From Candidatus Schekmanbacteria bacterium (GTDB lineage: Bacteria > Schekmanbacteria > GWA2-38-11 > J061), in NCBI GenBank assembly GCA_016219965.1, contig JACRJM010000007.1, forward strand, positions 372,294 through 436,293: 64,000 bases of DNA, given 5' to 3'. Positions within the stretch are counted from its first letter, which is position 1, and every line of letters starts with the position of its first letter. A program made the position numbers and the translations under genes. The notes under the pieces were generated by a model that was not told the DNA's origin, ran no database searches, and was given only the letters and a program-made list of their open reading frames with translations. Of this stretch, positions 9,989 to 64,000 are shown in pieces.

Positions 9989-12052
9989 TTATCTTGAGAC
10001 AAGTACACCTTCAATCTCACGCTCTATTCCATTTATTGTTTCTGAAAAAAGATATGACATTCTCACAGTCTGAACAGCGGCTTGTCCGGTTTTTCGTACC
10101 TCTTCAGGATTTTTTAATAGTCTCATAAGTATTGATTTCAGGAGCTCGATATTTCCGGGTTTGATTATATAGCCGTTCACACCATCCCTGATAATCTCTC
10201 CAATGCTCCCGGTATCAGATGCTATAACGGAAAGCCCGCTGGCCATAGCTTCGAGAATCACAAGTGGGAACCCTTCAGCATAGGAAGGAAGGACAAAGAT
10301 ACCGCACTCCCGCAACACCTTTCTTTTCCGCTCTCCATCCACCCATCCGGTGAGACTCACCTTTTTATCAAGGTTATGGTCACTGATAAATTTTTTCACA
10401 TTCCCATCGCTATCCACACCTGCCAGAACAAGCTTCGCATCAATTCCATCTTCCCCTGAAATCTCAGCAAAAGCTTTCAGAAGGTCATATATTCCTTTGC
10501 GCTCCTCAAGTTGTCCCATAAAAAGTATCCCGCCGGCCTTGTCATATTTCTTTTCTCTTCCATCTTCTGTGAAAAGCTCAAGCTCTGGAGAGGAAGGTGG
10601 AACAATGCTTATGTCTTCTCTTCCGGAAATATAGGAAAGGCTCTGCTTCCAGCAGTCAGAAAGCGCGATAAGCCTATCTGCGCGTTTAAAGATATAGTGC
10701 ATATATTTTTTTACTAACTCATTAGACCTTGCATAAAAATGGTCAATATCAAATGAATGACAGTAAATGACGGTCTTCACCCTAAAGAAATATGCAATAA
10801 GTGCAATGATGGACTTCCTGAAAAAGCTTGCATCCCCGCTCATGTAGATTAAGAGCATATGGGGCGGATTAAGTATAAGCTTAAGCTTCAACTTTACAAA
10901 TGCAGAAAGCGCTTTAAATAATTTTGAGATCTTCCCCCCCGAGACATGTGTCTCAAGGTAATCCAAACGGTATTTTTCTGAAAGTCTGCTCTTTAGAAGA
11001 AATCCAGCCTGTCTTGAAAGCCCTCCTTTCACCGAGAGAGCGGGGCCTGCAAGCATTATGCGCATCGAAGGAATAGTGTCTGAAAACGGTCTGAATTCAT
11101 CAAAGGGAAAAACAAGGAATCTGAAGTGCCCCTTTATTCGCGCGCTCTCCCTCTCTTCATCACCTATAGAAAGAGAGAATTTCAATATAGCTGCCAACAG
11201 TCTGATGATTGTGCCGGTTTTTTTTATGGCAATAAATATCTTCCCTTTCCAGAGAGGGCTCCTTCTTATAAATGCAAGGCATCCGCTCCTCTGGAACTCA
11301 AAGTACATTCTGCCGACCCATTCCGCATCCAGCTTCCCTGACTCCGGAAATGAGCTCTGTCTGTGTCTGTGAACCATCGTGGCATCCGGCACAAAACCTA
11401 TCTTCCAGCCAAGAGCCCTTGCCTTGAAACAAATATCTTCATCGCCTGTAAATGAAGTTTCATCAAAACCCCCGGTCTTTTCTATAGCCTTGCGCCTCAT
11501 TATCATTGCTGCGCCCATTATCCAGTCAGGGTATATCTTTTCCGATGAATCGCGCTTTTCTATTTCAGCAACCGGAAACTCTGCGATATTCTTAAAAAAT
11601 CTGTCTATGAAAAATGCCTCTGCTAAAGCCCTCAAAAGCGTTCTGTCCTTAAAACAGGTCGCTTGATTTCCTCCATCAGGATAAAATAGTCTGCACCCGG
11701 CAATCCCGACATCATTATTCTCTTCCATAAATTTTATGAGCCTGTTCAGCGCCTCCGGAAGCACAATTACATCATTATTGAGCACAAAAAGGTATTCTCC
11801 GGTAGCCACTCTCATTCCGGCATTTACAGCTTTTGTAAATCCAAGATTGCTTTCATTTCTGATGACCTTTGCTTCAGGAAATTGCTGGGAAAGCATCTCC
11901 ACAGTGCCGTCAGTCGAACCATTATCTATGACTATAGCCTCAGACTGAAACGAGGAAGGAGCCCCTTTCAGTGATTCGAGGCATTGAGCGAGCATCTCTT
12001 TTCCATTCCATGTTGGAATGACTATGGATAATTTGTAATTATATTCCTTCAT
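9989..12052 (-). CDS. Bifunctional glycosyltransferase (N-terminal GT2 + C-terminal GT4/GT1-type)
   Basis: N-term SIVIPTWNGKE..IVIDNGSTDGT (GT2); C-term EGFPLVILEAMASGLSVIASDTGSIGEIIRDGVNGYI (GT4 signature); start placed at MKEYNYKL to limit overlap with the downstream gene. Confidence 0.8.
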   Translation of the reverse strand: MKEYNYKLSIVIPTWNGKEMLAQCLESLKGAPSSFQSEAIVIDNGSTDGTVEMLSQQFPEAKVIRNESNLGFTKAVNAGMRVATGEYLFVLNNDVIVLPEALNRLIKFMEENNDVGIAGCRLFYPDGGNQATCFKDRTLLRALAEAFFIDRFFKNIAEFPVAEIEKRDSSEKIYPDWIMGAAMIMRRKAIEKTGGFDETSFTGDEDICFKARALGWKIGFVPDATMVHRHRQSSFPESGKLDAEWVGRMYFEFQRSGCLAFIRRSPLWKGKIFIAIKKTGTIIRLLAAILKFSLSIGDEERESARIKGHFRFLVFPFDEFRPFSDTIPSMRIMLAGPALSVKGGLSRQAGFLLKSRLSEKYRLDYLETHVSGGKISKLFKALSAFVKLKLKLILNPPHMLLIYMSGDASFFRKSIIALIAYFFRVKTVIYCHSFDIDHFYARSNELVKKYMHYIFKRADRLIALSDCWKQSLSYISGREDISIVPPSSPELELFTEDGREKKYDKAGGILFMGQLEERKGIYDLLKAFAEISGEDGIDAKLVLAGVDSDGNVKKFISDHNLDKKVSLTGWVDGERKRKVLRECGIFVLPSYAEGFPLVILEAMASGLSVIASDTGSIGEIIRDGVNGYIIKPGNIELLKSILMRLLKNPEEVRKTGQAAVQTVRMSYLFSETINGIEREIEGVLVSR

Positions 12053-12989
12053 CAAAGCCCTTATGCAGGTGGTAGAGAAAAGCGTTCTTTGCAAAAAAAG
12101 CTAACAGACCTGACATCTCATCATCTGGATTTTTTTTTGCCAGGATTTTTTCGACTATTCTTGCTGTAAAGCGGTTCCTGATTGCCCTTTTAATGAATCT
12201 TTTTTTTAGCACAAGCTTACCATCTTTTGATTCATAACCATAAGTAGCTGCAACCTCAGGCCATTTGGATAGAAATATCCTGAGAGCTCTTCCGCTTGTC
12301 TCCATCCTCGCGAGCAATCTGGAAAGTTCCTGCCTATGATTATGTTCAACCACTGCATTCTGGTTAAAAACAATCTTCATCCCTGCTTTTTCAAGCCTGT
12401 AGCCAAACTCGATATCCTCCCATGCCGCGGCAGGAAACTTCTCATCAAAAAATATGTTATTCTTTACAACAAAACTTTTTTTAAGAGAGAGATTTGAAGA
12501 ATAAAAATTGTGAAAATCCGTTTCATAGTTTTTCGAGCCTTCAGTTTTTTTAAACTGGAATTCTGCTTCATCAAGAAAGCGATGCAGACTGTTCCGTGCA
12601 ATGGATTTTTCCCACACAACAGCTCCTACCATAGCATACTCATCCCCACAGTAATCCTTCTCATGAAACCTGAGATGCTCATTTAATGTATCCGGAGAAA
12701 CAAGAATATCATCACCCGTAAAAAAAATAATATTCGAGCTAGCCGCCCTTATCCCTGTGTTTCTTGCTGAAGCAGGCCCCCTTTTCGCTGAAGGAATATA
12801 ATTTATCTTTTCCTTAAATTTCAAACATATCTCCCTGTTCCTATCCATCACAGCAGAGTCTGATCCATCATCAACAACGATAATCTCCATTTCACTTAAA
12901 AGAACTCCGGAGGAAACCAGTTTAGAAAGAGCATCTACAAGCTGCTCCGGACGGTTCCGCGTCGGGATTATAATTGAAATGCGGTTCAT
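12039..12989 (-). CDS. Family 2 glycosyltransferase
   Basis: ISIIIPTRNRPEQL..IIVVDDGSDS motifs. Confidence 0.75.
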   Translation of the reverse strand: MNRISIIIPTRNRPEQLVDALSKLVSSGVLLSEMEIIVVDDGSDSAVMDRNREICLKFKEKINYIPSAKRGPASARNTGIRAASSNIIFFTGDDILVSPDTLNEHLRFHEKDYCGDEYAMVGAVVWEKSIARNSLHRFLDEAEFQFKKTEGSKNYETDFHNFYSSNLSLKKSFVVKNNIFFDEKFPAAAWEDIEFGYRLEKAGMKIVFNQNAVVEHNHRQELSRLLARMETSGRALRIFLSKWPEVAATYGYESKDGKLVLKKRFIKRAIRNRFTARIVEKILAKKNPDDEMSGLLAFFAKNAFLYHLHKGFDEGI

Positions 12990-13855
12990 TTATTAATCCT
13001 TTGATTAACCCTTTTTAATGAAGCGGAAACCAATGCGGTCATTTCAACTGCAAAGGCAAGTATATCTATTAAGACAAATGAGAGTCTGCATTCATCCCAT
13101 TTTTTTTGAAGAAAATATCTTAAAGGATTCTTAATTATGATCTTAAGGTAATTAATAAAAAAACTCTTCCTGTTTTTGCTTAAAGCGATTATGCCCCAGT
13201 AATACCAGCGGTAAATAGCCTTAGTTAGCGAAGATAGGCTATCATGCTTTAGATGGGAAACCGTGGCAGATGGCTCGTAGATAAGCCTGTATCCTTTGTT
13301 TTTAAGCCTGGTGCCGATTTCAATATCCTCGCCGTTCGTTCTAAAATCAATATCAAATCCCCCTAAACTGCGAAGTATGTCAACTCTATACGATGAGCAT
13401 ACACCCCAGAGGAACATGGCATCGCCCCCCGAGCTATGCTCCTGCCTCATCCTTGAGCTTCTCCATCTGTCCCATAGGGTTTCCGCTTCAGCTTCAATCG
13501 CTTTTCCTCCGACGCCTGCAATGTTTTCATCCCTGTAGCAGGCAGCAATCTTTTCGAGAAAATCTTTGCGAGGTACTGTGTCGCTGTCAAAATACGCAAT
13601 TATATCGGTGTCGCATTGTGCAAGAGCGCTGTTCCGCGCAGATGCAAGCCCCATGTTCTTTTCATGTGTTATAACCACAACATCCGGAAACTCGGCAAGT
13701 ACTTTGGGAGTATTATCTATAGAGCCGTCATCAATCACTATTATACGGGATGGCTTGGGGTCGAGGTCTTTAATACCTGAAATGTTTCTTTTTAAATATT
13801 TTTCTGCATTGCAGGCTGGAATGGCTACTGTAATTCTTAATTTATCCTGCTTCAA
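12986..13855 (-). CDS. Family 2 glycosyltransferase
   Basis: RITVAIPACNAEKYL..IIVIDDGSIDNT motifs; 4-bp overlap with downstream GT2 suggests an operon. Confidence 0.75.
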   Translation of the reverse strand: MKQDKLRITVAIPACNAEKYLKRNISGIKDLDPKPSRIIVIDDGSIDNTPKVLAEFPDVVVITHEKNMGLASARNSALAQCDTDIIAYFDSDTVPRKDFLEKIAACYRDENIAGVGGKAIEAEAETLWDRWRSSRMRQEHSSGGDAMFLWGVCSSYRVDILRSLGGFDIDFRTNGEDIEIGTRLKNKGYRLIYEPSATVSHLKHDSLSSLTKAIYRWYYWGIIALSKNRKSFFINYLKIIIKNPLRYFLQKKWDECRLSFVLIDILAFAVEMTALVSASLKRVNQRINK

Positions 13856-13861
13856 GAGATA

Positions 13862-14713
13862 TTATCTTCTTATGACCATGTTATCTATAAGCCGCGTATT
13901 CCCTATCTTTACTGCCACGGCAACGAGCACGTTTTTTTCGAGGGTATCGAGGTCTTCAAGCGTATCCGGATCACAAAGCAAGATATAATCCACAACAATG
14001 TTTTTTTCTTTTTTCACGATTTTATGCAATGCAGAGAGGACAGCCTCCGGCTCAACCTCACCATTAATAATAAGATGCTCCGCTTCCTTGATTATCTTCC
14101 TTAAAATCTTCGCCCTTCCCCGGTCTTCAGGATTCAAATACTTGTTTCGCGAGCTCATTGCCACGCAATCCGGTTCGCGGACTATGGGCATAGCAACGAT
14201 AGCTGTATCAAGATTCAGGTCATTTACCATTTTCTTTATTATCTGGAGCTGCTGATAATCTTTCTCACCAAAGTAAGCCTTGTGGGGGAAAACAATATTG
14301 AAGAGCTTTAGCACTATGGTAGCAACGCCGTCAAAATGACCCGGTCTTGAAAGACCGCAAAGGTGAGTTTGAAGCAATTTTACGCTCACCGAAGTCTGGA
14401 ATCCTTCAGGATACATCTCTTCAACAGAAGGAGCGAAAATGACATCAACCTTTTCATTCATGCAATCCTCGCAATCCTGCTCAAAGATCCGCGGGTAGGC
14501 GGTATAATCCTCTTTGGGACCAAACTGCGTGGGATTCACAAATATGCTCACTACCGTAACATCGCAATCTTCCCTTGATTTTCTTATTAGCGATAAATGG
14601 CCGTCATGGAGGCATCCCATAGTGGGGACAAGTCCTATGGTTTTTCTCTCTTTTTTCCAGCGTGCAGATAGCTCTTTCATCTGTTGTATTTTTTCAACTA
14701 CTAGCATCATCAC
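13862..14713 (-). CDS. panC: Pantoate--beta-alanine ligase (pantothenate synthetase)
   Basis: GLVPTMGCLHDGHLSLIRKS HIGH-type motif and overall PanC pattern. Confidence 0.9.
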   Translation of the reverse strand: MMMLVVEKIQQMKELSARWKKERKTIGLVPTMGCLHDGHLSLIRKSREDCDVTVVSIFVNPTQFGPKEDYTAYPRIFEQDCEDCMNEKVDVIFAPSVEEMYPEGFQTSVSVKLLQTHLCGLSRPGHFDGVATIVLKLFNIVFPHKAYFGEKDYQQLQIIKKMVNDLNLDTAIVAMPIVREPDCVAMSSRNKYLNPEDRGRAKILRKIIKEAEHLIINGEVEPEAVLSALHKIVKKEKNIVVDYILLCDPDTLEDLDTLEKNVLVAVAVKIGNTRLIDNMVIRR

Positions 14714-15276
14714 TTCCCTACTGACAGATCCAGGGACTTCCTGAAATCACTGAAGTACTGAACACCGGAGATTACTGAGATCACAGCCGTGAAAAATATG
14801 AGCCCCAGGCCTGCGTTATAAAAATATATTATTTCCTGATTAGCTCCTGCAAGGATGAGAAGCAGAATGGCTATGATCTCGAAAACAGTCTTATATTTTG
14901 CGAGAGTGCTTGCCTGTATCACCAGCCCCTGTGTTGCAGCAATACTTCTTAATCCATCAATGCAGAAATCCCTTCCGATAATAAGCACCACTATCCATGC
15001 GGGAGCTTTTTGCAGATCAACAAGTGAAATAAGCGCTGAAGATGTGAGGAGTTTATCAGCTATCGGATCGAGGAGTTTCCCTAATGTAGTAATCTGATTC
15101 CGGTTCCTCGCTATGTAGCCATCAATTATATCTGTGAGAGAAGCGATGCCGAATATCAGTGCAGCCATGAGATGCATATAATATTTGCTTGAATAGAGCA
15201 GGAAAAAAACAATAAGCGGGATAAGGAATATCCTCACCGTAGTTATCCTATTCGCCAGGTTCATCTCAAAAAATGC
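14710..15276 (-). CDS. pgsA: CDP-alcohol phosphatidyltransferase (phosphatidylglycerophosphate synthase-like)
   Basis: DIIDGYIARNRNQITTLGKLLDPIADK matches the CDP-alcohol phosphatidyltransferase D-G-A-R-G-D-D signature; start placed at an internal Met. Confidence 0.8.
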   Translation of the reverse strand, partial: AFFEMNLANRITTVRIFLIPLIVFFLLYSSKYYMHLMAALIFGIASLTDIIDGYIARNRNQITTLGKLLDPIADKLLTSSALISLVDLQKAPAWIVVLIIGRDFCIDGLRSIAATQGLVIQASTLAKYKTVFEIIAILLLILAGANQEIIYFYNAGLGLIFFTAVISVISGVQYFSDFRKSLDLSVGK

Positions 15277-15403
15277 CATTCTTTTGGCCGCCTCCTCTGC
15301 CCGTAACTTATGGGCAACACCGCTATTTGTCAAGAAATTGTTAAATTGCTCATTGAATTCGCAAAGCTCATTTAATATAGTCTACATTACACTAAAATTA
15401 TCT

Positions 15404-16807
15404 ATGGCACGAATCGCATTCTTACAGAATTTCTGGTATGAATTTTTAGGCACCATGTATATCTCAGCTTTGCTGAAAGATAGGGGGCATACCTGCGAGG
15501 TATTTATTGAATCCGGAGAGAAAAACTTCACAGAAAGCATAACTCGCTTCAAACCTGACCTCATAGGCTTTTACACGACAACCGGCACTCATGGCTGGGC
15601 ATTATCGAGAGCTTCGAAACTAAAGAAATTAACCGGAAGCCGCGTTATCCTGGGAGGTCCGCATCCAACATTTTTTCCTGAAGTCATAGAGAATGAAGCT
15701 GTAGATATCATATGCATGGGTGAAGGAGAGTATGCCATGATCGAGCTTGCAGAAAGGTTAGACAGCGGGAAATCTTTCGCCGATATTCAAAACCTCCATG
15801 TAAAATCAAATGGGGCAATTACCAGAAACGATCTCAGACCTTTGATAGATGACCTTGATACCCTGCCGCCCCCTGACCGCGCGCTCTACGACAAGTATCC
15901 ATCGCTTCAGGACAATCTGAGCGTCTTTACCGGACGCGGTTGTCCCTTCGACTGCTCATTCTGTTTCAACAGACCCTACATCAAGCTTTACAAAGACAAG
16001 GGAAAGCCAATAAGGAGGCACAGCCCCCGCTGGGTGATAGAAGAATTAAAAAGGATAATAAGACTTTATAAAACGAAGTTCATACGTTTCGATGATGAGG
16101 TTTTCATCCTCAACAATAAATGGCTTACTGAATTTCTCCCCATTTATAAAAAAGAGATAGGACTTCCATTCACGTGCCTTCTCCATGTGAAGCTTGTTAC
16201 ACCTGAGGTAGTCGAATTGCTCAAAGAATCAGGATGCCAGATGGCATACTTCGGGATTGAAAGCGGCAATGAAGAAATAAGAAATGTTGCCTTGAGAAAA
16301 GGAATAAAAGAAGAGGAGATGATGAGGTCTGCCGAGCTTCTAAACAAGGCAGGCATTAAAATTGGCACATACAATATGCTTGGACTGCCCGGAGAAACTG
16401 TGGACAAGGCATTTGAAACCGTGCATATCAATCAGCGCATCGGTGTTGAATACCCGTGGTGCTCTTTATATCAGCCATATCCGGGAACAGACCTTGAAAA
16501 TTATTGCAGGGAAAAGGGACTGCTCGGAGAGGATTATTCCTGCGATTCCATATCTGCATCATTCTTTAAGAGAAGCGTAGTTGAAAACAAAGAGAAAAAA
16601 GAACTTGAGAGATTGCAGAAGCTTTTCCACATTGCCGTGCAGTTCCCAAGCCTTGAGCCGCTCATCAGGTTTGCTGTAAGGCTTCCAATCACATCGCTGC
16701 TGGACGTAATCTTCTATGCTACTTATGGGTATAGGTATATGAAGACATATAAGGTGTCGTTGTGGAGAGTTATCATCACTGGGTTGAGGTCGAGGGAATA
16801 TATCTAG
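15404..16807 (+). CDS. B12-binding domain radical SAM protein (class B rSAM)
   Basis: N-terminal cobalamin-binding-like domain followed by GRGCPFDCSFCFN (CxxxCxxC); start at MARIAFLQ rather than the ORF-track start, which overlaps pgsA. Confidence 0.85.
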   Translation: MARIAFLQNFWYEFLGTMYISALLKDRGHTCEVFIESGEKNFTESITRFKPDLIGFYTTTGTHGWALSRASKLKKLTGSRVILGGPHPTFFPEVIENEAVDIICMGEGEYAMIELAERLDSGKSFADIQNLHVKSNGAITRNDLRPLIDDLDTLPPPDRALYDKYPSLQDNLSVFTGRGCPFDCSFCFNRPYIKLYKDKGKPIRRHSPRWVIEELKRIIRLYKTKFIRFDDEVFILNNKWLTEFLPIYKKEIGLPFTCLLHVKLVTPEVVELLKESGCQMAYFGIESGNEEIRNVALRKGIKEEEMMRSAELLNKAGIKIGTYNMLGLPGETVDKAFETVHINQRIGVEYPWCSLYQPYPGTDLENYCREKGLLGEDYSCDSISASFFKRSVVENKEKKELERLQKLFHIAVQFPSLEPLIRFAVRLPITSLLDVIFYATYGYRYMKTYKVSLWRVIITGLRSREYI

Positions 16808-56734: not shown

Positions 56735-57451
56735 TCAAACTGTCCCTGCTTTTACATCTATCTGCGTAAGCTTCCCATGCTCAAGCCGCAATACCCTGTC
56801 AGACTTACTTGCAATATCAAAGTTATGCGTTGCAATTACAAAGCTTTCGTTCTTGCTTTTATTAAGATTCCGCAAAAGTTCAAATACCTCATCCCCGGTC
56901 TCTCTGTCAAGGTTTCCGGTAGGCTCATCGGCAAGGACTATCTTCGGACTCATTGCCAGGGCCCTTGCTAATGCAACCCTTTGCTGCTCACCTCCGGAAA
57001 GCTCTGAAGGACGATGCTCAACCCTTTCGCCAAGCCCCACTTCTGAAAGGAGGTTAACCGCCAACTCCCTTGCCTCCTTCATGCTTTTCCCGTTGATCAA
57101 TTGCGGTATCATTACATTCTCAAGGCTTGAAAATTCCATAAGAAGGTGGTGGAACTGGAACACAAATCCAATGTTTACGTTCCTGAATCTTGCCCTCTCC
57201 TCTTCCTTGAACTTCCAGATGTCTTCAGAGCCGTAAAAAATCTCCCCGCCATCAGGAGAGTCAAGCAAACCAAGCAAATGAAGCAGTGTACTCTTACCAG
57301 TACCCGATGCACCGACGATGCTCACAAGCTCACCCTGTTTCAGGGAAAAGCTGAGACCCTTTAAGACCTCTATCTTTGCATCTCCCATCTGGTAGGATTT
57401 GCTGAGGTCTTTAGCTTCTAAAATAATATTATTAGACAATTCGCACTTCAT
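56735..57451 (-). CDS. lolD: Lipoprotein-releasing system ATP-binding protein
   Basis: Walker [10 protein letters not shown]; ABC signature [14 protein letters not shown]; Walker [12 protein letters not shown]. Confidence 0.85.
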
Positions 57452-58001
57452 TTGTTGATTACCTTACGACACGGCAAACAGGGCATTATATAAAAAAGTT
57501 CCGGTCATACTTTTAAGCTTCAAGCCTTACCGAAACAAATGCTTTCAACGAAAATAACAAAATAAAACAGGTATGTAAAAAGCCAAATAATTGTGCGAGT
57601 TATATAGGTCGGGGATTAAAAGTCAAGGAAAAATGGCAGCGGATAAAACCGGTACTTATGATATTTTGAAGAAAGAAAACAAGTAGAAAAAAACATAACA
57701 AGCTAAATAAAACCGTCGAATATTTGAACACTTTAAGTCGTTTAAAATCAATATGTTCTAAAAACTCACTAAAAAGTGTGCAGTTTAGTGAACAGTTTAG
57801 TAGGAGTTTATATTAACCTATCCAAGCTATACGACACATTTAAACCTAATATTTTCAAGCAAATCAGTATGTTATTATCTTCGAGTTACCTTCTGGCACA
57901 TTCTTTGCTTATTTTATATAGAATATTTTTTAAGTTTACTATTTAAGTCTTGTATATAGCCTGTAAAATTTTTTTCCACTTCAGAATAAGGGGGTATTGT
58001 G

Positions 58002-60512
58002 ATGAGGCGTAAATCAATTCTATTCATTATTGTTTTCTCAATTCTGTTAATTCCTCTTCTTGCTTTTGCAAACACATCACCTGATACATCAAAAGTTTTA
58101 GCCAAGGCCGCAAAGCTTCAGATACCTTTCATAGAGAACAAGGGACAGGTTCAGGACAAGTCTGTAAGATTTTATGCAAACACCTTCGCAGGCAATGTGT
58201 TTGTTACGGATAAAGGAGAGATAGTTTACGGGCTGGCAAACGGAGAAAGCTTTACTCCCCTTCGCGAAACTCTCCTTGGTACAATACCGTCAACTATAAA
58301 AGGCGAGAGCAAATCAGCAACACAGGTAAATTACTTCGTTGGCAATAAAGAAAACTGGAAGTCAAACATCTCCACATGGGACAGCGTAAATCTCGGCGAA
58401 GTCTATGAAGGTGTAGAGCTAAAGCTCAAAGCATATGGGAAAAATGTTGAAAAGCTTTTCTATGTAAATGAATGCGGAGATGTTGATGATATTAAACTAA
58501 CATTCGACGGCGCAGAAGATATTTCAGTTAACAAAGATGGCGAGCTTGAAATTGAAACAGCTCTCGGCACAGTGAAATTTACAAAGCCCTTCGCCTATCA
58601 GGAAATTGATGGAAAAAAGGTTGAAGTGAAATGCGACTTCGTAACTAATTCTTTCTCCTATGGCTTCCAGGTCACCTCATACAACAAAAACTATCCTCTG
58701 GTTATTGACCCATCTATTGTTTATTCAACATATCTTGGCGGAAGTAGTTTTGATTATGGTTACGGCATTGACGCTGACTGTTCAGGAAATGTTTATGTCA
58801 TAGGTGGCACCGAATCGACTGATTTTATAATTTCTTCTCCATATCAAGGGGATAGTGGTGGTTCTGCAGACATCTTTGTTACAAAAATAAATTCATCTGG
58901 TTCTGTTATCTACTCTACTTATATTGGTGGGAATGGGTATGACAGAGGTTACGATATTGCAGTTGACTGCTCAGGGAATGCTTACATCACTGGCTTTACA
59001 GAGTCTAGTAATTTCCCTACAGTTTCACCGATTCGTGCTACTAATGGTGGAGGTATGGATGTTTTTATTACAAAAATCAATCCCTCAGGCTCAAGCCTGA
59101 TATATTCAACTTATTTAGGAGGTAATTCCAGCGACGTTGGATTTGCTATCGCTGTTAACGCTTCCGGAAATGCATACATTACCGGAAGTACTTTATCATC
59201 AAACTTTCCAAAATATCATAATGTAATCCCAAATTCAAAGTATGGAACCACAGATGCAAGTGACGCTTTTATTGTAAAAATAAATTTATCCGGTACGGGT
59301 CTATTGTATTCCATGCTTCTTGGAGGAAATAATGATGATGAAGCAAAGGGCATCGCTGTTGACGGCAATGGAAACATCTATGTAGCTGGGAACACAAATT
59401 CGTCTGATTTCCCTACTGTTCTTCCTATTCAAGCTACAAAAGCAGGAACTGGCACTACAAGTGATGCTTTTGTCACAAAGATAAATGCCGCTGGAACAGC
59501 AATTTTATATTCTACCTACATTGGAGGTAGTAATATAGATTATGCTAATGGAGCTGACGTAGATAGTGCTGGTAATGTTTATATTACTGGGGCAACTAAA
59601 TCCAATAATTTCCCTACAGTCTTACCAATTAAAGGGTATGGCGGTGGGTATGATGCTTTTGTTACAAAGATTAATGAATCTGGTTCAGCTATTGTTTATT
59701 CTACTTACCTTGGAAGTGGTTATGGAGATTTTGGTAACGGCATCGCTGTTGATAATTCTGGGAATGCTTATGTTGCTGGCAATACAGGTGGGAATTTCCC
59801 TCAAGTATTGCCTGTTCAAACTACAAATTTAGACGGAGGTGATGCTTTTATTACAAAAATAAATGCATCCGGAGATGCTTTTGTTTTTTCCACACGTTAT
59901 GGAGGACAAGAAAGTGATGATGCAAGAGCGATTGCCATTGATAGCAGTGGAAATATTTACATCACAGGAAACACGTCTTCTACTAATTTTCAAATAGCTG
60001 CTCCAATACAACGCGCATATAATGGAGTATGGGACGCTTTTGTTGCAAAGATTGGAGAAGCGTCGGATAGTGATTCGGATGGGATTGCAGATTCAGCAGA
60101 TAATTGTCCTACAGTTTCAAATTCCGACCAAGCTGATTATAATAATAATGGACAAGGTGATGCATGTGACCCGCCTCCAACGTTAATAACCCTTTCCTCT
60201 TTTGAAGCCAAACAATCTGGCAAAAAAGTCTTAATAACTTGGCAGACCGCCACAGAGATCGACAACCTCGGTTTCAACATCCTGCGCAGTGAGACTGCTG
60301 ATGGAGAATATGTTAAGATAAATAAAAAACTCATCAAAGCCAAAGGTAGTTCAACAAAAGGTGCGAGTTACAAGTTCAAAGATAAGAATATCGAGGCAGG
60401 AAAGACTTATTTCTACAAACTCGAAGATATTGACAGTAGCACAGGACCAAATCTGTCTGATGCGGTGAAAGTTGAAGTGACTGCGAGGAAGGGAAAAGAG
60501 AAGAAGAAATAA
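58002..60512 (+). CDS. Secreted SBBP-type beta-propeller repeat protein with thrombospondin-type-3-like Asp-rich segment and conserved C-terminal domain (paralog 1)
   Basis: Signal peptide MRRKSILFIIVFSILLIPLLAFA; about nine tandem units of pattern (V/I)YSTY(L/I)GG..D.G.GIA(V/I)D.SGN.Y(V/I)TG.T.S.NFP; DSDSDGIADSADNCPTVSNSDQADYNNNGQGDACD; C-terminal ~110 aa ending in Lys-rich tail; ATG at 58002 follows RBS AAGGGGG. Confidence 0.8.
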   Translation: MRRKSILFIIVFSILLIPLLAFANTSPDTSKVLAKAAKLQIPFIENKGQVQDKSVRFYANTFAGNVFVTDKGEIVYGLANGESFTPLRETLLGTIPSTIKGESKSATQVNYFVGNKENWKSNISTWDSVNLGEVYEGVELKLKAYGKNVEKLFYVNECGDVDDIKLTFDGAEDISVNKDGELEIETALGTVKFTKPFAYQEIDGKKVEVKCDFVTNSFSYGFQVTSYNKNYPLVIDPSIVYSTYLGGSSFDYGYGIDADCSGNVYVIGGTESTDFIISSPYQGDSGGSADIFVTKINSSGSVIYSTYIGGNGYDRGYDIAVDCSGNAYITGFTESSNFPTVSPIRATNGGGMDVFITKINPSGSSLIYSTYLGGNSSDVGFAIAVNASGNAYITGSTLSSNFPKYHNVIPNSKYGTTDASDAFIVKINLSGTGLLYSMLLGGNNDDEAKGIAVDGNGNIYVAGNTNSSDFPTVLPIQATKAGTGTTSDAFVTKINAAGTAILYSTYIGGSNIDYANGADVDSAGNVYITGATKSNNFPTVLPIKGYGGGYDAFVTKINESGSAIVYSTYLGSGYGDFGNGIAVDNSGNAYVAGNTGGNFPQVLPVQTTNLDGGDAFITKINASGDAFVFSTRYGGQESDDARAIAIDSSGNIYITGNTSSTNFQIAAPIQRAYNGVWDAFVAKIGEASDSDSDGIADSADNCPTVSNSDQADYNNNGQGDACDPPPTLITLSSFEAKQSGKKVLITWQTATEIDNLGFNILRSETADGEYVKINKKLIKAKGSSTKGASYKFKDKNIEAGKTYFYKLEDIDSSTGPNLSDAVKVEVTARKGKEKKK

Positions 60513-60522
60513 AAGATTCTGG

Positions 60523-60583
60523 ATCCCGCATCAAGTGCGGGATGACAAAAGTGACTGTGTTGGATGCCGGCTCAAGTCCGGCA
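60523..60583 (+). other. Tandem stem-loop pair between the large gene and the small peptide gene
   Basis: ATCCCGCA-TCAAG-TGCGGGAT and ATGCCGG-CTCAAGT-CCGGCAT, each followed by GACA; same pair recurs at 63282-63342. Confidence 0.6.
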
Positions 60584-60630
60584 TGACAGATTATTAAGGA
60601 ATGACAACAGGATTAATAGGAGAATATAAA

Positions 60631-60786
60631 ATGAATAAGATGAAAAAAATTTATAAAAAACCAACTATCAGAAAAGTAAAACTTGTTCCTGAAGAAGCAG
60701 TTCTCGGTGTTTGCAAGAGCGACACAGGCGCGGGACCAAATCAGTCAGTCTGCATCATCCCACAATGCTTTAATCCGGGAAGCTGA
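60631..60786 (+). CDS. Conserved 51-aa three-cysteine peptide (paralog 1), unknown function
   Basis: MNKMKKIYKKPTIRKVKLVPEEAVLGVCKSDTGAGPNQSVCIIPQCFNPGS; RBS AGGAGA 7 nt upstream; copy 2 differs at 17 codons, 13 of them synonymous. Confidence 0.65.
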   Translation: MNKMKKIYKKPTIRKVKLVPEEAVLGVCKSDTGAGPNQSVCIIPQCFNPGS

Positions 60787-60820
60787 TTATTTTATAAAAC
60801 AAATATCTGGGGGTATTGTG

Positions 60821-63271
60821 ATGGGGCGTAAATCAATTCTATTTATTATTGTGTTCTCAATCCTGTTAATTCCTTTCATTACTTTTGCAAACACACAACC
60901 TGATACATCAAAAGTTTTAGCTAAGGCGGCTAAGCTCCAGATACCTTTCATAGAGAACAAGGGACAGGTTCAGGACAAGTCTGTAAGATTTTATGCAAAC
61001 ACTTTTGCAGGCAATGTGTTCGTTACTGATAAAGGAGAGATAGTTTACGGGTTGGTAAACGGAGAAAGCTTTACTCCCCTTCGCGAAACTCTCATTGGTA
61101 CAATACCGTCAACTATAAAGGGCGAGAGCAAATCAGCAACACAGGTAAATTACTTCGTTGGTAATAAAGAAAACTGGAAGTCAAACATCTCCACATGGGA
61201 CAGCGTAAATCTCGGTGAAGTCTATGAAGGTGTGGAGTTAAAGCTCAAAGCATACGGACAAAATGTAGAAAAGCTTTTCTATGTAAATGAATGCGGAGAT
61301 GTTGATGATATTAAACTAACATTCGACGGTGCAGAAGATATTTTTGTCAATGAAAGCGGAGAACTTGAAGTAGAGACAGAACTCGGCACAGTGAAATTTA
61401 CCAAGCCCTTCGCCTATCAGGAGCTTGATGGAAAAAAGATTGAGGTAAAATGCAACTTCATCGTCCCTTCCTCTACCCTGCGGGGAGAGGAACGAGGTGA
61501 GGGGGAACTCTCCTACGGCTTCCAGGTCGCCTCATACGACAAGAACTATCCGCTGGTCATAGATCCATCTATTGTTTATTTTGGAACATTTGGTGGAGGT
61601 GTAACAACCATCCCCTATGATGTAACTCTCGATAATTCAGGAAATGTGTACATCACAGGACAAACTTATGGCACTCTCGGTGATTTTCCACTAATTTCTC
61701 CATTATATAGTTATAATAAAGGGGACAGTGATGTGTTTGTTTTAAAAATTAATGCAAGCGGCACCGCACTTGTTTATTCAACTTTTATCGGTGGAACCGG
61801 GGTTGATGTCGGCTATGGTATCGCAGTTGATAGCTCAGAGAATATTTATATTACAGGTTCGACAACATCATCTAATTTTCCCTTAATGTCTCCAATACAA
61901 GCTTTGAAAGCTGGAACAAATGATGCATTTATTACCAAAATAAATTCATCCGGAACATCCCTTATTTATTCAACATATCTGGGAGGTAGCAATTCTGATT
62001 ACTGTACCGCAATAGCAGTTGATAACTCGGGGAATGCCTATGTTACAGGAAATACCAATTCTACAAATTTCCCCTTGTCATCTCCATTGCAGGGAAGTTT
62101 TGGGGGAGGAAGTTACGACGCATTTTTAACAAAAATTAATTCTTCAGGAAATGTTTTTGTTTATTCTACATACCTTGGTGGAAGCGACTGGGAAAGGGGG
62201 AATAGTATTGCCGTTGATTCAGCAGGCAATGCATATGTGACTGGAAGCACACAATCAACAAATTTCCCTATATATAATGCCTTTCAATCAACTATGAAAG
62301 ACAACAATGGTTATTATTCCCAACATGCTTTTATAACAAAGATTAATTCTTCAGGCACGACATTTATTTTTTCAACATATTTTGGAGGAACTTTCGGTGC
62401 TGTTGGTAAAGGCATTGCAGTTGATTCATACGGTAATATCTATGTAGGCGGTGAAACTTTTTCCTATGATCTTCCAGTTACCAACTATCTTTCAAATCCT
62501 TTCCCTATGAGCACTAATGCCTTTGTAAGTAAATTTGACACAACAGGCGCCACACTTCTTTATTCTACTTTTTTCGGTGGAAGTTGGGAACAGACAGTAA
62601 ATGACATTGCTATAGACGGAGGCGGCAATATTTATATTGTCGGTTCAACATACTCTTATGTCGATTTTCCAGTTTATAGAGCCTTCCAGCCGCAATTCAA
62701 CAATACAAGTGGTCTTAAAGATGGTTTTGTAAGCAAAATAAATCCGGCAACCCAATCTTTTGAATATTCCTCTTATTTAGGTAGTTATAGTTATGGAGTT
62801 GATAATGTGGCATATGGGGTTGCCGCATCACTTGATGGCACTGCATATGTAGCGGGAGTATCTGGTTTGCCAAGAATTAACAGTCCTTCAGGTTTAAATG
62901 GCGGGGACGCTTTTATTGCTAAAATTGCAGATATCCCAACAGCTATAACTCTTTCATTATTTGAAATAAATCAGCACGGCAAAAAAGTCCTTTTAACTTG
63001 GCAAACCGCCACAGAGATCGACAACCTCGGATTCAACATCCTGCGCAGTGAGACTGCTGATGGTCAATATGTTAAGATAAATAACAGACTCATCAAAGCC
63101 AAAGGGAGTTCAACAAAAGGTGTGAGTTACAAGTTCAAAGATAAGAATATTGAGGCAGGAAAGACTTACTTCTACAAACTCGAAGATATTGACAGCAACA
63201 CAGGACCAAATCTGTCTGATGCGGTGAAAGTTAAAGTGACCGCAAGGAAGGGAAAAGAGAAGAAGAAATAA
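60821..63271 (+). CDS. Secreted SBBP-type beta-propeller repeat protein (paralog 2)
   Basis: Start at MGRKSILF after the same GGGGGTATTGTG RBS block; N-terminal ~240 aa and C-terminal ~110 aa near-identical to paralog 1 at DNA level, central repeat region divergent; ORF-track start at 60683 rejected. Confidence 0.8.
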   Translation: MGRKSILFIIVFSILLIPFITFANTQPDTSKVLAKAAKLQIPFIENKGQVQDKSVRFYANTFAGNVFVTDKGEIVYGLVNGESFTPLRETLIGTIPSTIKGESKSATQVNYFVGNKENWKSNISTWDSVNLGEVYEGVELKLKAYGQNVEKLFYVNECGDVDDIKLTFDGAEDIFVNESGELEVETELGTVKFTKPFAYQELDGKKIEVKCNFIVPSSTLRGEERGEGELSYGFQVASYDKNYPLVIDPSIVYFGTFGGGVTTIPYDVTLDNSGNVYITGQTYGTLGDFPLISPLYSYNKGDSDVFVLKINASGTALVYSTFIGGTGVDVGYGIAVDSSENIYITGSTTSSNFPLMSPIQALKAGTNDAFITKINSSGTSLIYSTYLGGSNSDYCTAIAVDNSGNAYVTGNTNSTNFPLSSPLQGSFGGGSYDAFLTKINSSGNVFVYSTYLGGSDWERGNSIAVDSAGNAYVTGSTQSTNFPIYNAFQSTMKDNNGYYSQHAFITKINSSGTTFIFSTYFGGTFGAVGKGIAVDSYGNIYVGGETFSYDLPVTNYLSNPFPMSTNAFVSKFDTTGATLLYSTFFGGSWEQTVNDIAIDGGGNIYIVGSTYSYVDFPVYRAFQPQFNNTSGLKDGFVSKINPATQSFEYSSYLGSYSYGVDNVAYGVAASLDGTAYVAGVSGLPRINSPSGLNGGDAFIAKIADIPTAITLSLFEINQHGKKVLLTWQTATEIDNLGFNILRSETADGQYVKINNRLIKAKGSSTKGVSYKFKDKNIEAGKTYFYKLEDIDSNTGPNLSDAVKVKVTARKGKEKKK

Positions 63272-63390
63272 AAGATTCTGGATCCCGCATCAAGTGCGGG
63301 ATGACAAAAGTGACTGTGCTGGATGCCGGCTCAAGTCCGGCATGACAGATTATTAAAGAATGACAACAGGATTAATAGGAGAATATAATA

Positions 63391-63546
63391 ATGAATAAGG
63401 TAAAGAAGGCTTACAGAAAACCAACCATCAGAAAAGTAAAACTTGTTCCGGAAGAGGCAGTCCTTGGCGTATGCAAGAGCGACACAGGCGCAGGCCCAAA
63501 TCAGTCAACCTGCATCATCCCGCAATGCTTTAATCCGGGAAGCTGA
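63391..63546 (+). CDS. Conserved 51-aa three-cysteine peptide (paralog 2)
   Basis: MNKVKKAYRKPTIRKVKLVPEEAVLGVCKSDTGAGPNQSTCIIPQCFNPGS; below the ORF-track size cutoff but clearly the copy of 60631-60786. Confidence 0.65.
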   Translation: MNKVKKAYRKPTIRKVKLVPEEAVLGVCKSDTGAGPNQSTCIIPQCFNPGS

Positions 63547-63600
63547 TAGAATTATTATGAGCCGCTGCAACTTTTTATATAAATTGAATAAGGAGCGGGT

Positions 63601-64000
63601 TATGGTAAATCAAAAATTGATTTCTACCATGTTGTTTTTAATCACAGCATCCGCCTTTCTATTTACAACGAGTTCTGGCGCAGGCGAAATCACATTAGCT
63701 CCGATTGCAGACGGATCAGTGGCAAGACAATATACGACATATTCAATATTTACACCAGGTTCAGTTAAATTTGGCGAAGGAAATACTGTAGTTTCTAATG
63801 ACAATATTACAGTTCATCAACAAAGGGGTTATAGTTTCAATGATGTTGAATGTGAAGAAGGTATAATCGAGTTTGATATTACTTCTCTGAGCGAGCTATC
63901 TCCGGGTAGTTTCAATGCAGAATTAATACTCACTGTAGACAACTCAAACTGGCCTGCCGTACAATATCCTTCGACAGCGTATAACGAATTATTTGTTTAT
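63601..64000 (+). CDS. Secreted hypothetical protein, 5' partial (runs off window end)
   Basis: RBS AAGGAG then ATG; signal-peptide-like MVNQKLISTMLFLITASAFLFTTSSGAGE; open frame to the window edge. Confidence 0.5.

Follow-up and report, generated by a model that had tools for sequence, protein, structure and literature searches.

Stray copies of a candidate modified-peptide precursor family behind secreted-protein genes of a Schekmanbacteria genome

Introduction

What is the role of a 51-codon open reading frame (ORF) that stands twice in tandem, each time just behind the gene for a large secreted protein? The question is raised by a stretch of 64,000 nucleotides from a Candidatus Schekmanbacteria bacterium (contig JACRJM010000007.1, positions 372,294 to 436,293), which we refer to as a whole as the window. 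One copy of the ORF begins at position 60631 of the window and the second lies downstream of it. An earlier note on this DNA, written from the letters alone, had described the two peptides as a real, constrained coding sequence with conserved cysteines, and had guessed from their layout that they might be precursors of the kind that gives peptides made by the ribosome and then modified after translation (RiPPs). Here we report that both ORFs are genes, that they belong to a large peptide family which is linked in other lineages to an enzyme cassette, and that the window copies are probably strays from such cassettes.

Both peptide ORFs are genes under purifying selection

We recovered both ORFs, each encoding 51 residues, from the window; their positions and those of the surrounding features are collected in Table 1. 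The mechanical ORF call for copy 1 is longer, with 61 residues from a start at 60601. We placed the start at the ATG at 60631 because the homologues and the ribosome-binding site favor it over 60601. Motifs comparable to the Shine-Dalgarno sequences of the window (GGAG or AAGGAG) were also found 5' of homologues.

When the two copies were compared codon by codon, their 20 nucleotide differences fell in 17 codons, 13 with synonymous and four with non-synonymous changes (M4V, I7A, K9R and V40T), exactly the count given in the earlier note. That note had also claimed purifying selection and had named a formal comparison of non-synonymous (dN) with synonymous (dS) divergence as the check. The Nei-Gojobori method gave 13.5 synonymous differences over 32.8 synonymous sites and 6.5 non-synonymous differences over 120.2 non-synonymous sites, resulting in a dS of 0.60, a dN of 0.056 and a dN/dS of 0.094. 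Per site, synonymous differences were 7 to 8 times commoner than non-synonymous ones (binomial p = 4e-6 for the excess), and the claim holds. Comparison of the window copies with other members of their subgroup (see below) gave a dS at or near saturation and a dN of only 0.05-0.39.

Both copies lie inside a tandem repeat of about 2.8 kb whose identity is mosaic. The two units are about 93% identical over the N-terminal DUF7948 domain of the secreted protein, about 55% over its SBBP repeat region, 95-98% over its C-terminal domain and the intergenic DNA, and 87% over the peptide gene. The peptide gene is less alike than the homogenised DNA that flanks it, and the peptide genes are therefore older than this homogenised DNA and have been kept by selection at the protein level. 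With these results, we conclude that the peptide ORFs of the window are real genes under purifying selection.

The peptides belong to a large family with a conserved leader

Both peptides matched the family profile, with E-values of 2.9e-31 for copy 1 and 6.9e-32 for copy 2, and a profile search returned at least 1,239 family clusters (90% identity). Every named cluster is a "hypothetical protein". That the reading frame is conserved elsewhere, which the earlier note had set as a check, is borne out by these small-protein clusters. An exhaustive search with a single sequence returned 132 clusters at 50% identity, which range from 39 to 129 residues with nearly all between 39 and 90, and sequence searches yielded nine close relatives (two carry the name Candidatus Schekmanbacteria), eight genome loci and 41 metagenome loci. 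The family spans Schekmanbacteria, Aminicenantes, Nitrospirota/Sulfobium, Deltaproteobacteria, WOR-3 and Kiritimatiellia.

Family members share a leader signature, KKxYxKPx[IL]xx[VI]KLVPEEAVLxxCK, followed by a variable core that contains two further cysteines. From the VKLV motif onward, exactly three cysteines are present in 116 of 124 unique sequences. The C-terminal residue is serine in 115 of the 124 and threonine in four, and the last two residues are usually Gly-Ser. The invariant positions are P11, K17, L18, V19, E21, E22, V24, L25, C28, K29 and C41, mostly in the leader; the invariance of Cys28 and Cys41 was scored in an alignment of 18 sequences. The conservation of cysteines that the earlier note had seen between two copies is thus found across the family. 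Past the Cys-Lys pair, the sequence is variable in members linked to the cassette described below and nearly fixed in the subgroup to which the window copies belong, a Schekmanbacteria-type subgroup whose 14 distinct peptides share the core GPNQSxC[IL]IPQCFNxGS. Across the family as a whole, therefore, a conserved leader precedes a variable core, and the gene is a small stand-alone ORF under purifying selection, which is the layout of a leader-core precursor.

Neither Pfam (E-value up to 1) nor NCBIfam (E-value up to 10) returned a match for the window peptide or for eight distant family members, and exact-sequence look-ups of P0003, P0005 and the second window copy were likewise empty. In the collection of papers searched, no description of the peptide family or of its enzyme cassette was found. 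An L-x-x-C pattern in the peptide suggested a Sec or lipoprotein signal, which we rejected: the highest nine-residue Kyte-Doolittle mean before the cysteine is about 1.0, and the stretch holds Glu-Glu.

In other lineages the family is linked to a radical SAM enzyme cassette

Five genome loci served to build local profiles of the cassette, which we verified with Pfam and NCBIfam. All 35 distinct peptides that were placed outside the window's subgroup had one or more cassette genes within 6 kb. The partners were an HprK-like protein (29 of the 35 peptides), a radical S-adenosylmethionine (SAM) enzyme (24), a PqqD-type protein (19), an S26-type peptidase (15) and a PF14907 nucleotidyltransferase (14); pieces of the cassette are missing at some peptides because the contigs are short. 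The usual order is PqqD, radical SAM, peptide, HprK-like protein, S24/S26 peptidase and PF14907 nucleotidyltransferase. At locus L057, precomputed Pfam calls independently gave PqqD, then Radical_SAM, then the peptide.

Pfam and NCBIfam assigned cassette proteins to PqqD (1.9e-17), Radical_SAM, NTP_transf_5 (1.7e-52) and, above its cut-off, archaeal-type signal peptidase I. Apart from the peptidase, which matches that generic model, the cassette proteins fell below the cut-off of every named NCBIfam system. The radical SAM enzyme has a CxxxCxxC motif and seven conserved C-terminal cysteines, and among solved structures it is most closely related to the thioether-forming SkfB (3e-21), followed by PqqE, together with structures 5v1q and 5wgg, which we take to be SuiB and CteB, respectively. 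The HprK-like protein has an invariant GxxxxGKST P-loop, and its family, which carries the precomputed Pfam label PF27840, numbers at least 4,233 clusters. The structural model of the protein, with a predicted local distance difference test score (pLDDT) of 90, matched the folds of HPr kinase/phosphatase and phosphoenolpyruvate carboxykinase with a probability of 1.0.

We conclude that the family is tightly linked to an enzyme cassette in other lineages, and that it reads as an undescribed RiPP precursor. What the earlier note could only guess from the layout of two peptides is now supported, at the level of the family, by gene neighborhoods.

Some cassettes carry fusions or adjoin further genes. 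In L004 (10763-12979), the PF14907 nucleotidyltransferase forms a fusion with a Wza-like polysaccharide exporter, and in L007 (2993-4624) it is joined to the S24/S26 peptidase. Wzz-type genes (checked with Pfam in L032) and export genes adjoin the cassette in L004 and L032, and export, chain-length and secretion-ATPase-like genes appear beside it in L007 (of WOR-3) and L003 (of Aminicenantes), judged from the ORF sequences alone. In L057 (1-16695), the HprK-like gene is followed by one for a C25 (gingipain-like) peptidase.

A proposed route of maturation

The composition of the cassette suggests how the peptide could be processed. The PqqD-type chaperone would bind the conserved leader, KKxYxKPxIxxVKLVPEEAVL, a step proposed because of the general role of PqqD-type recognition elements and the presence of a YxxP-like motif. 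The radical SAM/SPASM enzyme would modify the three-cysteine core, and its nearest characterised relatives make Cys-derived thioether cross-links the likeliest product. The HPr-kinase-like P-loop kinase would phosphorylate the C-terminal serine, and the PF14907 nucleotidyltransferase may decorate the phosphate with a sugar; we propose phosphorylation because of the analogy with paeninodin and pseudomycoidin and because the terminal serine is nearly universal. The S24/S26-type peptidase would cut off the leader close to the invariant Cys-Lys; the residues of cassette-linked members, mostly Gly or Ala at position -1 and Leu at position -3, are compatible with the rules for type I signal peptidases.

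In the window's organism, the precursor genes have multiplied and lie dispersed just 3' of genes for large secreted proteins with a common C-terminal domain, and enzymes encoded at other sites of the genome would mature the peptides in trans. Maturation in trans is suggested because the subgroup keeps the cassette-type leader residues and because a core of matching pattern (AGPxxSSC...P.C...GS) is found in the cassette-linked peptides of L020 and L057. We therefore favor the reading that the window ORFs are stray copies of the precursor gene of an uncharacterised RiPP family and are matured in trans, and we assign it a probability of roughly 0.6. For this genome, we infer where the leader is cleaved, that the enzymes are present and that the peptide itself is modified.

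The window's subgroup is linked to a C-terminal domain and not to the cassette

Several points weigh against maturation in trans. Cassette genes were found near none of the 14 distinct Schekmanbacteria-type peptides, a search that took in all 64 kb of the window and, on contigs of up to 74 kb, as much as 10 kb of flank to either side. Neighboring genes for modifying enzymes, which the earlier note had set as a test of its proposal, were thus seen at all 35 distinct distant members and, within the DNA covered, at none of the 14 members of the window's own type. When the window and the close loci were searched by tblastn with every cassette protein, the only matches were a generic radical SAM gene at 88-1260 of the window and a marginal one at chance level (E-value 0.003). 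In addition, the core of the subgroup is nearly fixed rather than hypervariable, and its members have a consistent neighbor, a C-terminal protein domain, which the maturase model leaves unexplained. The trans-acting enzymes are hypothetical in the window's genome, and all of the chemical steps are inferred for every member of the family.

The neighboring domain comprises about 105 residues and has a Lys-rich tail. A gene that encodes it lies within 6 kb of 13 of the 14 distinct subgroup peptides and directly upstream at about 14 of about 17 distinct sites; in the window, both genes with the domain are followed by a peptide gene. The domain follows N-terminal parts of very different kinds, namely SBBP propeller, S8 protease, LVIVD and an immunoglobulin-like/Thr-rich protein. 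It has no Pfam model, its sole NCBIfam match is marginal (TIGR03000, 18.6 bits against a cut-off of 43.1), and its single-sequence AlphaFold model reached a pLDDT of 41. We regard the secreted-protein genes as associated context of the peptide genes, and a functional tie between them as hypothetical. At L019, L056 and L060, the peptide gene lies between S8 and C25 peptidase genes, and a type II secretion cluster then follows in L019 and L060.

The linkage to this domain could mean that the subgroup has been re-purposed, such that the peptide no longer depends on the radical SAM cassette, is unmodified or only disulfide-bonded, and acts as a small partner of the C-terminal-domain proteins, for example as a ligand, chaperone, anchor or cofactor-like piece. 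The position of the domain gene, usually directly upstream in spite of the varied N-terminal architectures, argues for this explanation, as do the order of genes in the window, the lack of a nearby cassette at any subgroup peptide, and a core that is almost invariant across paralogues and species. However, the subgroup leader keeps the same invariant residues as the leaders of cassette-linked members, a retention that is difficult to account for unless the two share a binding partner. Genes for the domain without a following peptide gene also exist (L009 and L054). Further, joint duplication or recombination of the 3' end of the domain gene with the peptide gene could give the linkage without any functional tie, and in the window the C-terminal domain and the intergenic stretch are being homogenised. 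We consider re-purposing possible, if unlikely.

A second explanation, which we hold to be quite unlikely, leaves the state of the peptide open. Modified or not, it would be a dedicated partner of the 105-residue domain, bound or attached to it, or its C-terminal serine would carry a phospho-sugar that ties the secreted proteins to surface polysaccharide. This explanation is entertained because the peptide genes are closely linked to the domain genes and because canonical cassettes recur beside polysaccharide export genes, with the exporter fusion in L004. If true, the partnership would be a case of a RiPP paired with a protein domain, for which we know of no described precedent.

The earlier note had also raised, as speculation, a link to the radical SAM/SPASM protein encoded at 88-1260, which would have to act as the maturase of the window peptides from 57 kb away. 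This protein is of the SPASM type with an N-terminal extension, and its best NCBIfam similarities are to peptide maturases such as ScmE, although at 112.9 bits it falls below the cut-off of 400. Against the cassette profile it scored 90 bits, whereas true members scored 327-637 bits and unrelated radical SAM proteins in L008 scored 65-93. It is 26-31% identical to the cassette enzymes, mostly over the radical SAM core, which is no closer than its identity to the ScmE of L008, and its N-terminus gave no PqqD signal even with all filters off. The gene is preceded by IscU-like and TusA genes and by a terminator-like hairpin, with DNA polymerase III genes next to it, and no radical SAM gene is found near any other subgroup copy. 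The link did not stand up, and we judge this protein very unlikely to be the maturase. As a separate observation, the arrangement of IscU-like and TusA genes, terminator-like hairpin and SPASM-type radical SAM gene with an N-terminal extension of about 95 residues is seen in L053 (1-1713) as well as in the window, and no candidate substrate peptide is visible beside the gene.

It is very unlikely that the ORF is an upstream regulatory frame whose translation controls the next secreted-protein gene. The window copies do lie 34 and 56 nucleotides ahead of the next genes, and in L009 the peptide stop codon overlaps the start of the next gene. However, there is no same-strand downstream gene in L001, L054, L055, L058 or L059, and it is the upstream gene that is conserved and not the downstream one. 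Leader peptides of this regulatory type are also not normally conserved in sequence across phyla, nor found inside enzyme cassettes. That the ORF is not a gene at all, its copies being alike only through recent tandem duplication of the 2.8-kb repeat in which they sit, is refuted by the synonymous excess and by the persistence of the frame in over 1,000 clusters that span several phyla.

Comparison with known peptide systems

We compared the cassette with known systems, beginning with SynChlorMet (SCM), which to our knowledge is defined bioinformatically only. The NCBIfam models used were ScmC (TIGR04249), ScmD (TIGR04248), ScmE (TIGR04250) and ScmF (TIGR04251). Both systems have a PqqD-type chaperone, one or two radical SAM/SPASM enzymes and an HprK-like protein, and an S26-type peptidase gene is present in the SCM cassette of L008. 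In contrast, the peptide's cassette fails the SCM models (ScmE, 78 bits against 400; ScmD, 34 against 100; ScmC, 20.5 against 125), has one radical SAM gene rather than two, and includes the PF14907 nucleotidyltransferase; no NCBIfam model matches the peptide. L008, from a Nitrospirae metagenome-assembled genome, contains a genuine SCM cassette (11403-15493) with PqqD and S26-type peptidase genes directly downstream of the peptide's cassette. Its proteins score above the cut-offs (ScmE, 546 bits; ScmF, 534; ScmC, 202). From these results, we conclude that the two systems are relatives and not identical.

The kinase and nucleotidyltransferase recall the phosphorylated lasso peptides. HPr-kinase homologues phosphorylate the C-terminal serine of the lasso precursors of paeninodin and pseudomycoidin, and a nucleotidyltransferase, which is sometimes fused to the leader protease, adds hexose to the phosphate (PMC8498205). 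The terminal serine, the HPr-kinase homologue, the nucleotidyltransferase and the PqqD chaperone are all shared with the peptide family, a likeness at the family level only because the window has no kinase gene. The fusion of S24/S26 peptidase and NTP_transf_5 in L007 echoes the lasso protease fusion. Lasso leaders carry a YxxP motif, as does the leader of the peptide. In place of a lasso cyclase and a transglutaminase-type B2 protease, neither of which is present, the cassettes have a radical SAM enzyme and an S26-type peptidase. We rejected the lasso peptide as a candidate for the window's product: there is no cyclase, and, counted from Cys28, the sole Asp of the window core is at position 4, so that positions 7-9 lack the acidic residue that would close a lactam ring. 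Lasso-type genes (Transglut_core3, a 47-residue ORF, PqqD and Asn_synthase) do occur near the cassette of L057.

With the sactipeptides and ranthipeptides (SkfA/SkfB, CteA/CteB and PapA/PapB), the family shares a cysteine-containing core, a SPASM radical SAM enzyme and a PqqD-type recognition element, again at the family level only; as noted, no solved structure is closer to the cassette enzyme than SkfB. The cassette enzyme nevertheless falls far below the listed NCBIfam maturase cut-offs (StsB and AlbA), the family peptide has only three cysteines in a fixed CK...C...C...GS layout with putative thioethers, and those classes are without kinase, nucleotidyltransferase or S26 peptidase partners.

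Prochlorosins, which are matured by ProcM, provide a case of dispersed multi-copy precursors matured in trans. The peptide resembles them in its conserved leader and in that a genome holds several precursor genes, well away from any maturase. It differs in that window-type cores are nearly identical rather than hypervariable and that the enzymes in trans are hypothetical.

The radical SAM kind of RiPP is well known, and the peptide family, the mix of enzymes and the stray subgroup linked to a secreted-protein domain seem to be new. In the cassette, a radical SAM enzyme of the thioether type is combined with a kinase and a nucleotidyltransferase, a pair known to date from lasso peptides, and the scaffold predicted from it is a new one, a cross-linked peptide with a phosphorylated, and perhaps glycosylated, C-terminal serine. 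The subgroup also raises the question of why precursor genes left the cassette, kept a nearly fixed core and settled behind one secreted-protein domain.

Other features of the locus

The second secreted-protein gene begins 34 nucleotides past peptide copy 1 and ends 119 nucleotides ahead of copy 2. A pair of hairpins lies 5' of each peptide copy (Table 1).

Table 1. Positions of the peptide genes, their signals and neighboring features
Feature	Position	Strand	Details
Peptide gene copy 1	60631-60786	+	51 residues and stop, MNKMKKIYKKPTIRKVKLVPEEAVLGVCKSDTGAGPNQSVCIIPQCFNPGS; ORF and translation
Copy 1, putative leader	60631-60711	+	Residues 1-27; boundary placed where family conservation stops
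Copy 1, putative core	60712-60783	+	Residues 28-51, CKSDTGAGPNQSVCIIPQCFNPGS; boundary placed where family conservation stops
Shine-Dalgarno of copy 1	60618-60622	+	AGGAG, 8 nucleotides 5' of ATG; read from sequence
Peptide gene copy 2	63391-63546	+	51 residues and stop; sequence of copy 1 with M4V, I7A, K9R and V40T
Shine-Dalgarno of copy 2	63377-63381	+	AGGAG, 9 nucleotides 5' of ATG; read from sequence
Secreted DUF7948/SBBP beta-propeller protein 1	57999-60512	+	837 residues; Pfam SBBP 5.9e-60, DUF7948 1.8e-49
Secreted DUF7948/SBBP protein 2	60821-63271	+	816 residues; Pfam
C-terminal domain of protein 1	60189-60509	+	Last ~105 residues; domain profile match
C-terminal domain of protein 2	62948-63268	+	Domain profile match
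C-terminal domain beyond the window	L001, L009, L013, L015, L016, L019, L054-L056, L058-L061
Hairpin pair 5' of copy 1	60521-60547 and 60562-60588	+	Between secreted-protein gene and copy 1
Hairpin pair 5' of copy 2	63280-63306 and 63321-63347	+	Same form as pair at copy 1
Degenerate repeats near peptide genes	L001 590-690; L015 190-235, 510-550; L054 5245-5600; L061 1650-2000

The hairpins have the form GGAT-stem-TCAAGT-stem-ATGACA, and their stems differ yet remain paired. A search with this pattern gave 4 matches against 0 expected, and the z-score of the fold was -3.7. The 118-nucleotide intergenic stretch that contains them differs between the repeats by two substitutions and one indel, compared with a dS of 0.6 in the adjoining peptide gene. 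An Rfam scan of 57400-64000, hairpins included, returned no match. The idea that the hairpins are a conserved element regulating the peptide gene was rejected, as they are absent 5' of the peptide genes in the 8 other subgroup loci inspected. A promoter and terminator scan did no better than on shuffled sequence; its best promoter-like match ends 2 nucleotides before the ATG of copy 2 and is not credible.

In several related loci, the peptide genes are flanked by degenerate tandem repeats of 7-8 nucleotides (GTGAATAG, TGCAAAG and AAGTTAT) with weak tandem-repeat scores. Within the window, the pair of DUF7948/SBBP genes (57999-63271) is itself a mosaic, with ends that are 93-98% identical and middles that are about 55% identical, a pattern that indicates gene conversion confined to the terminal domains.
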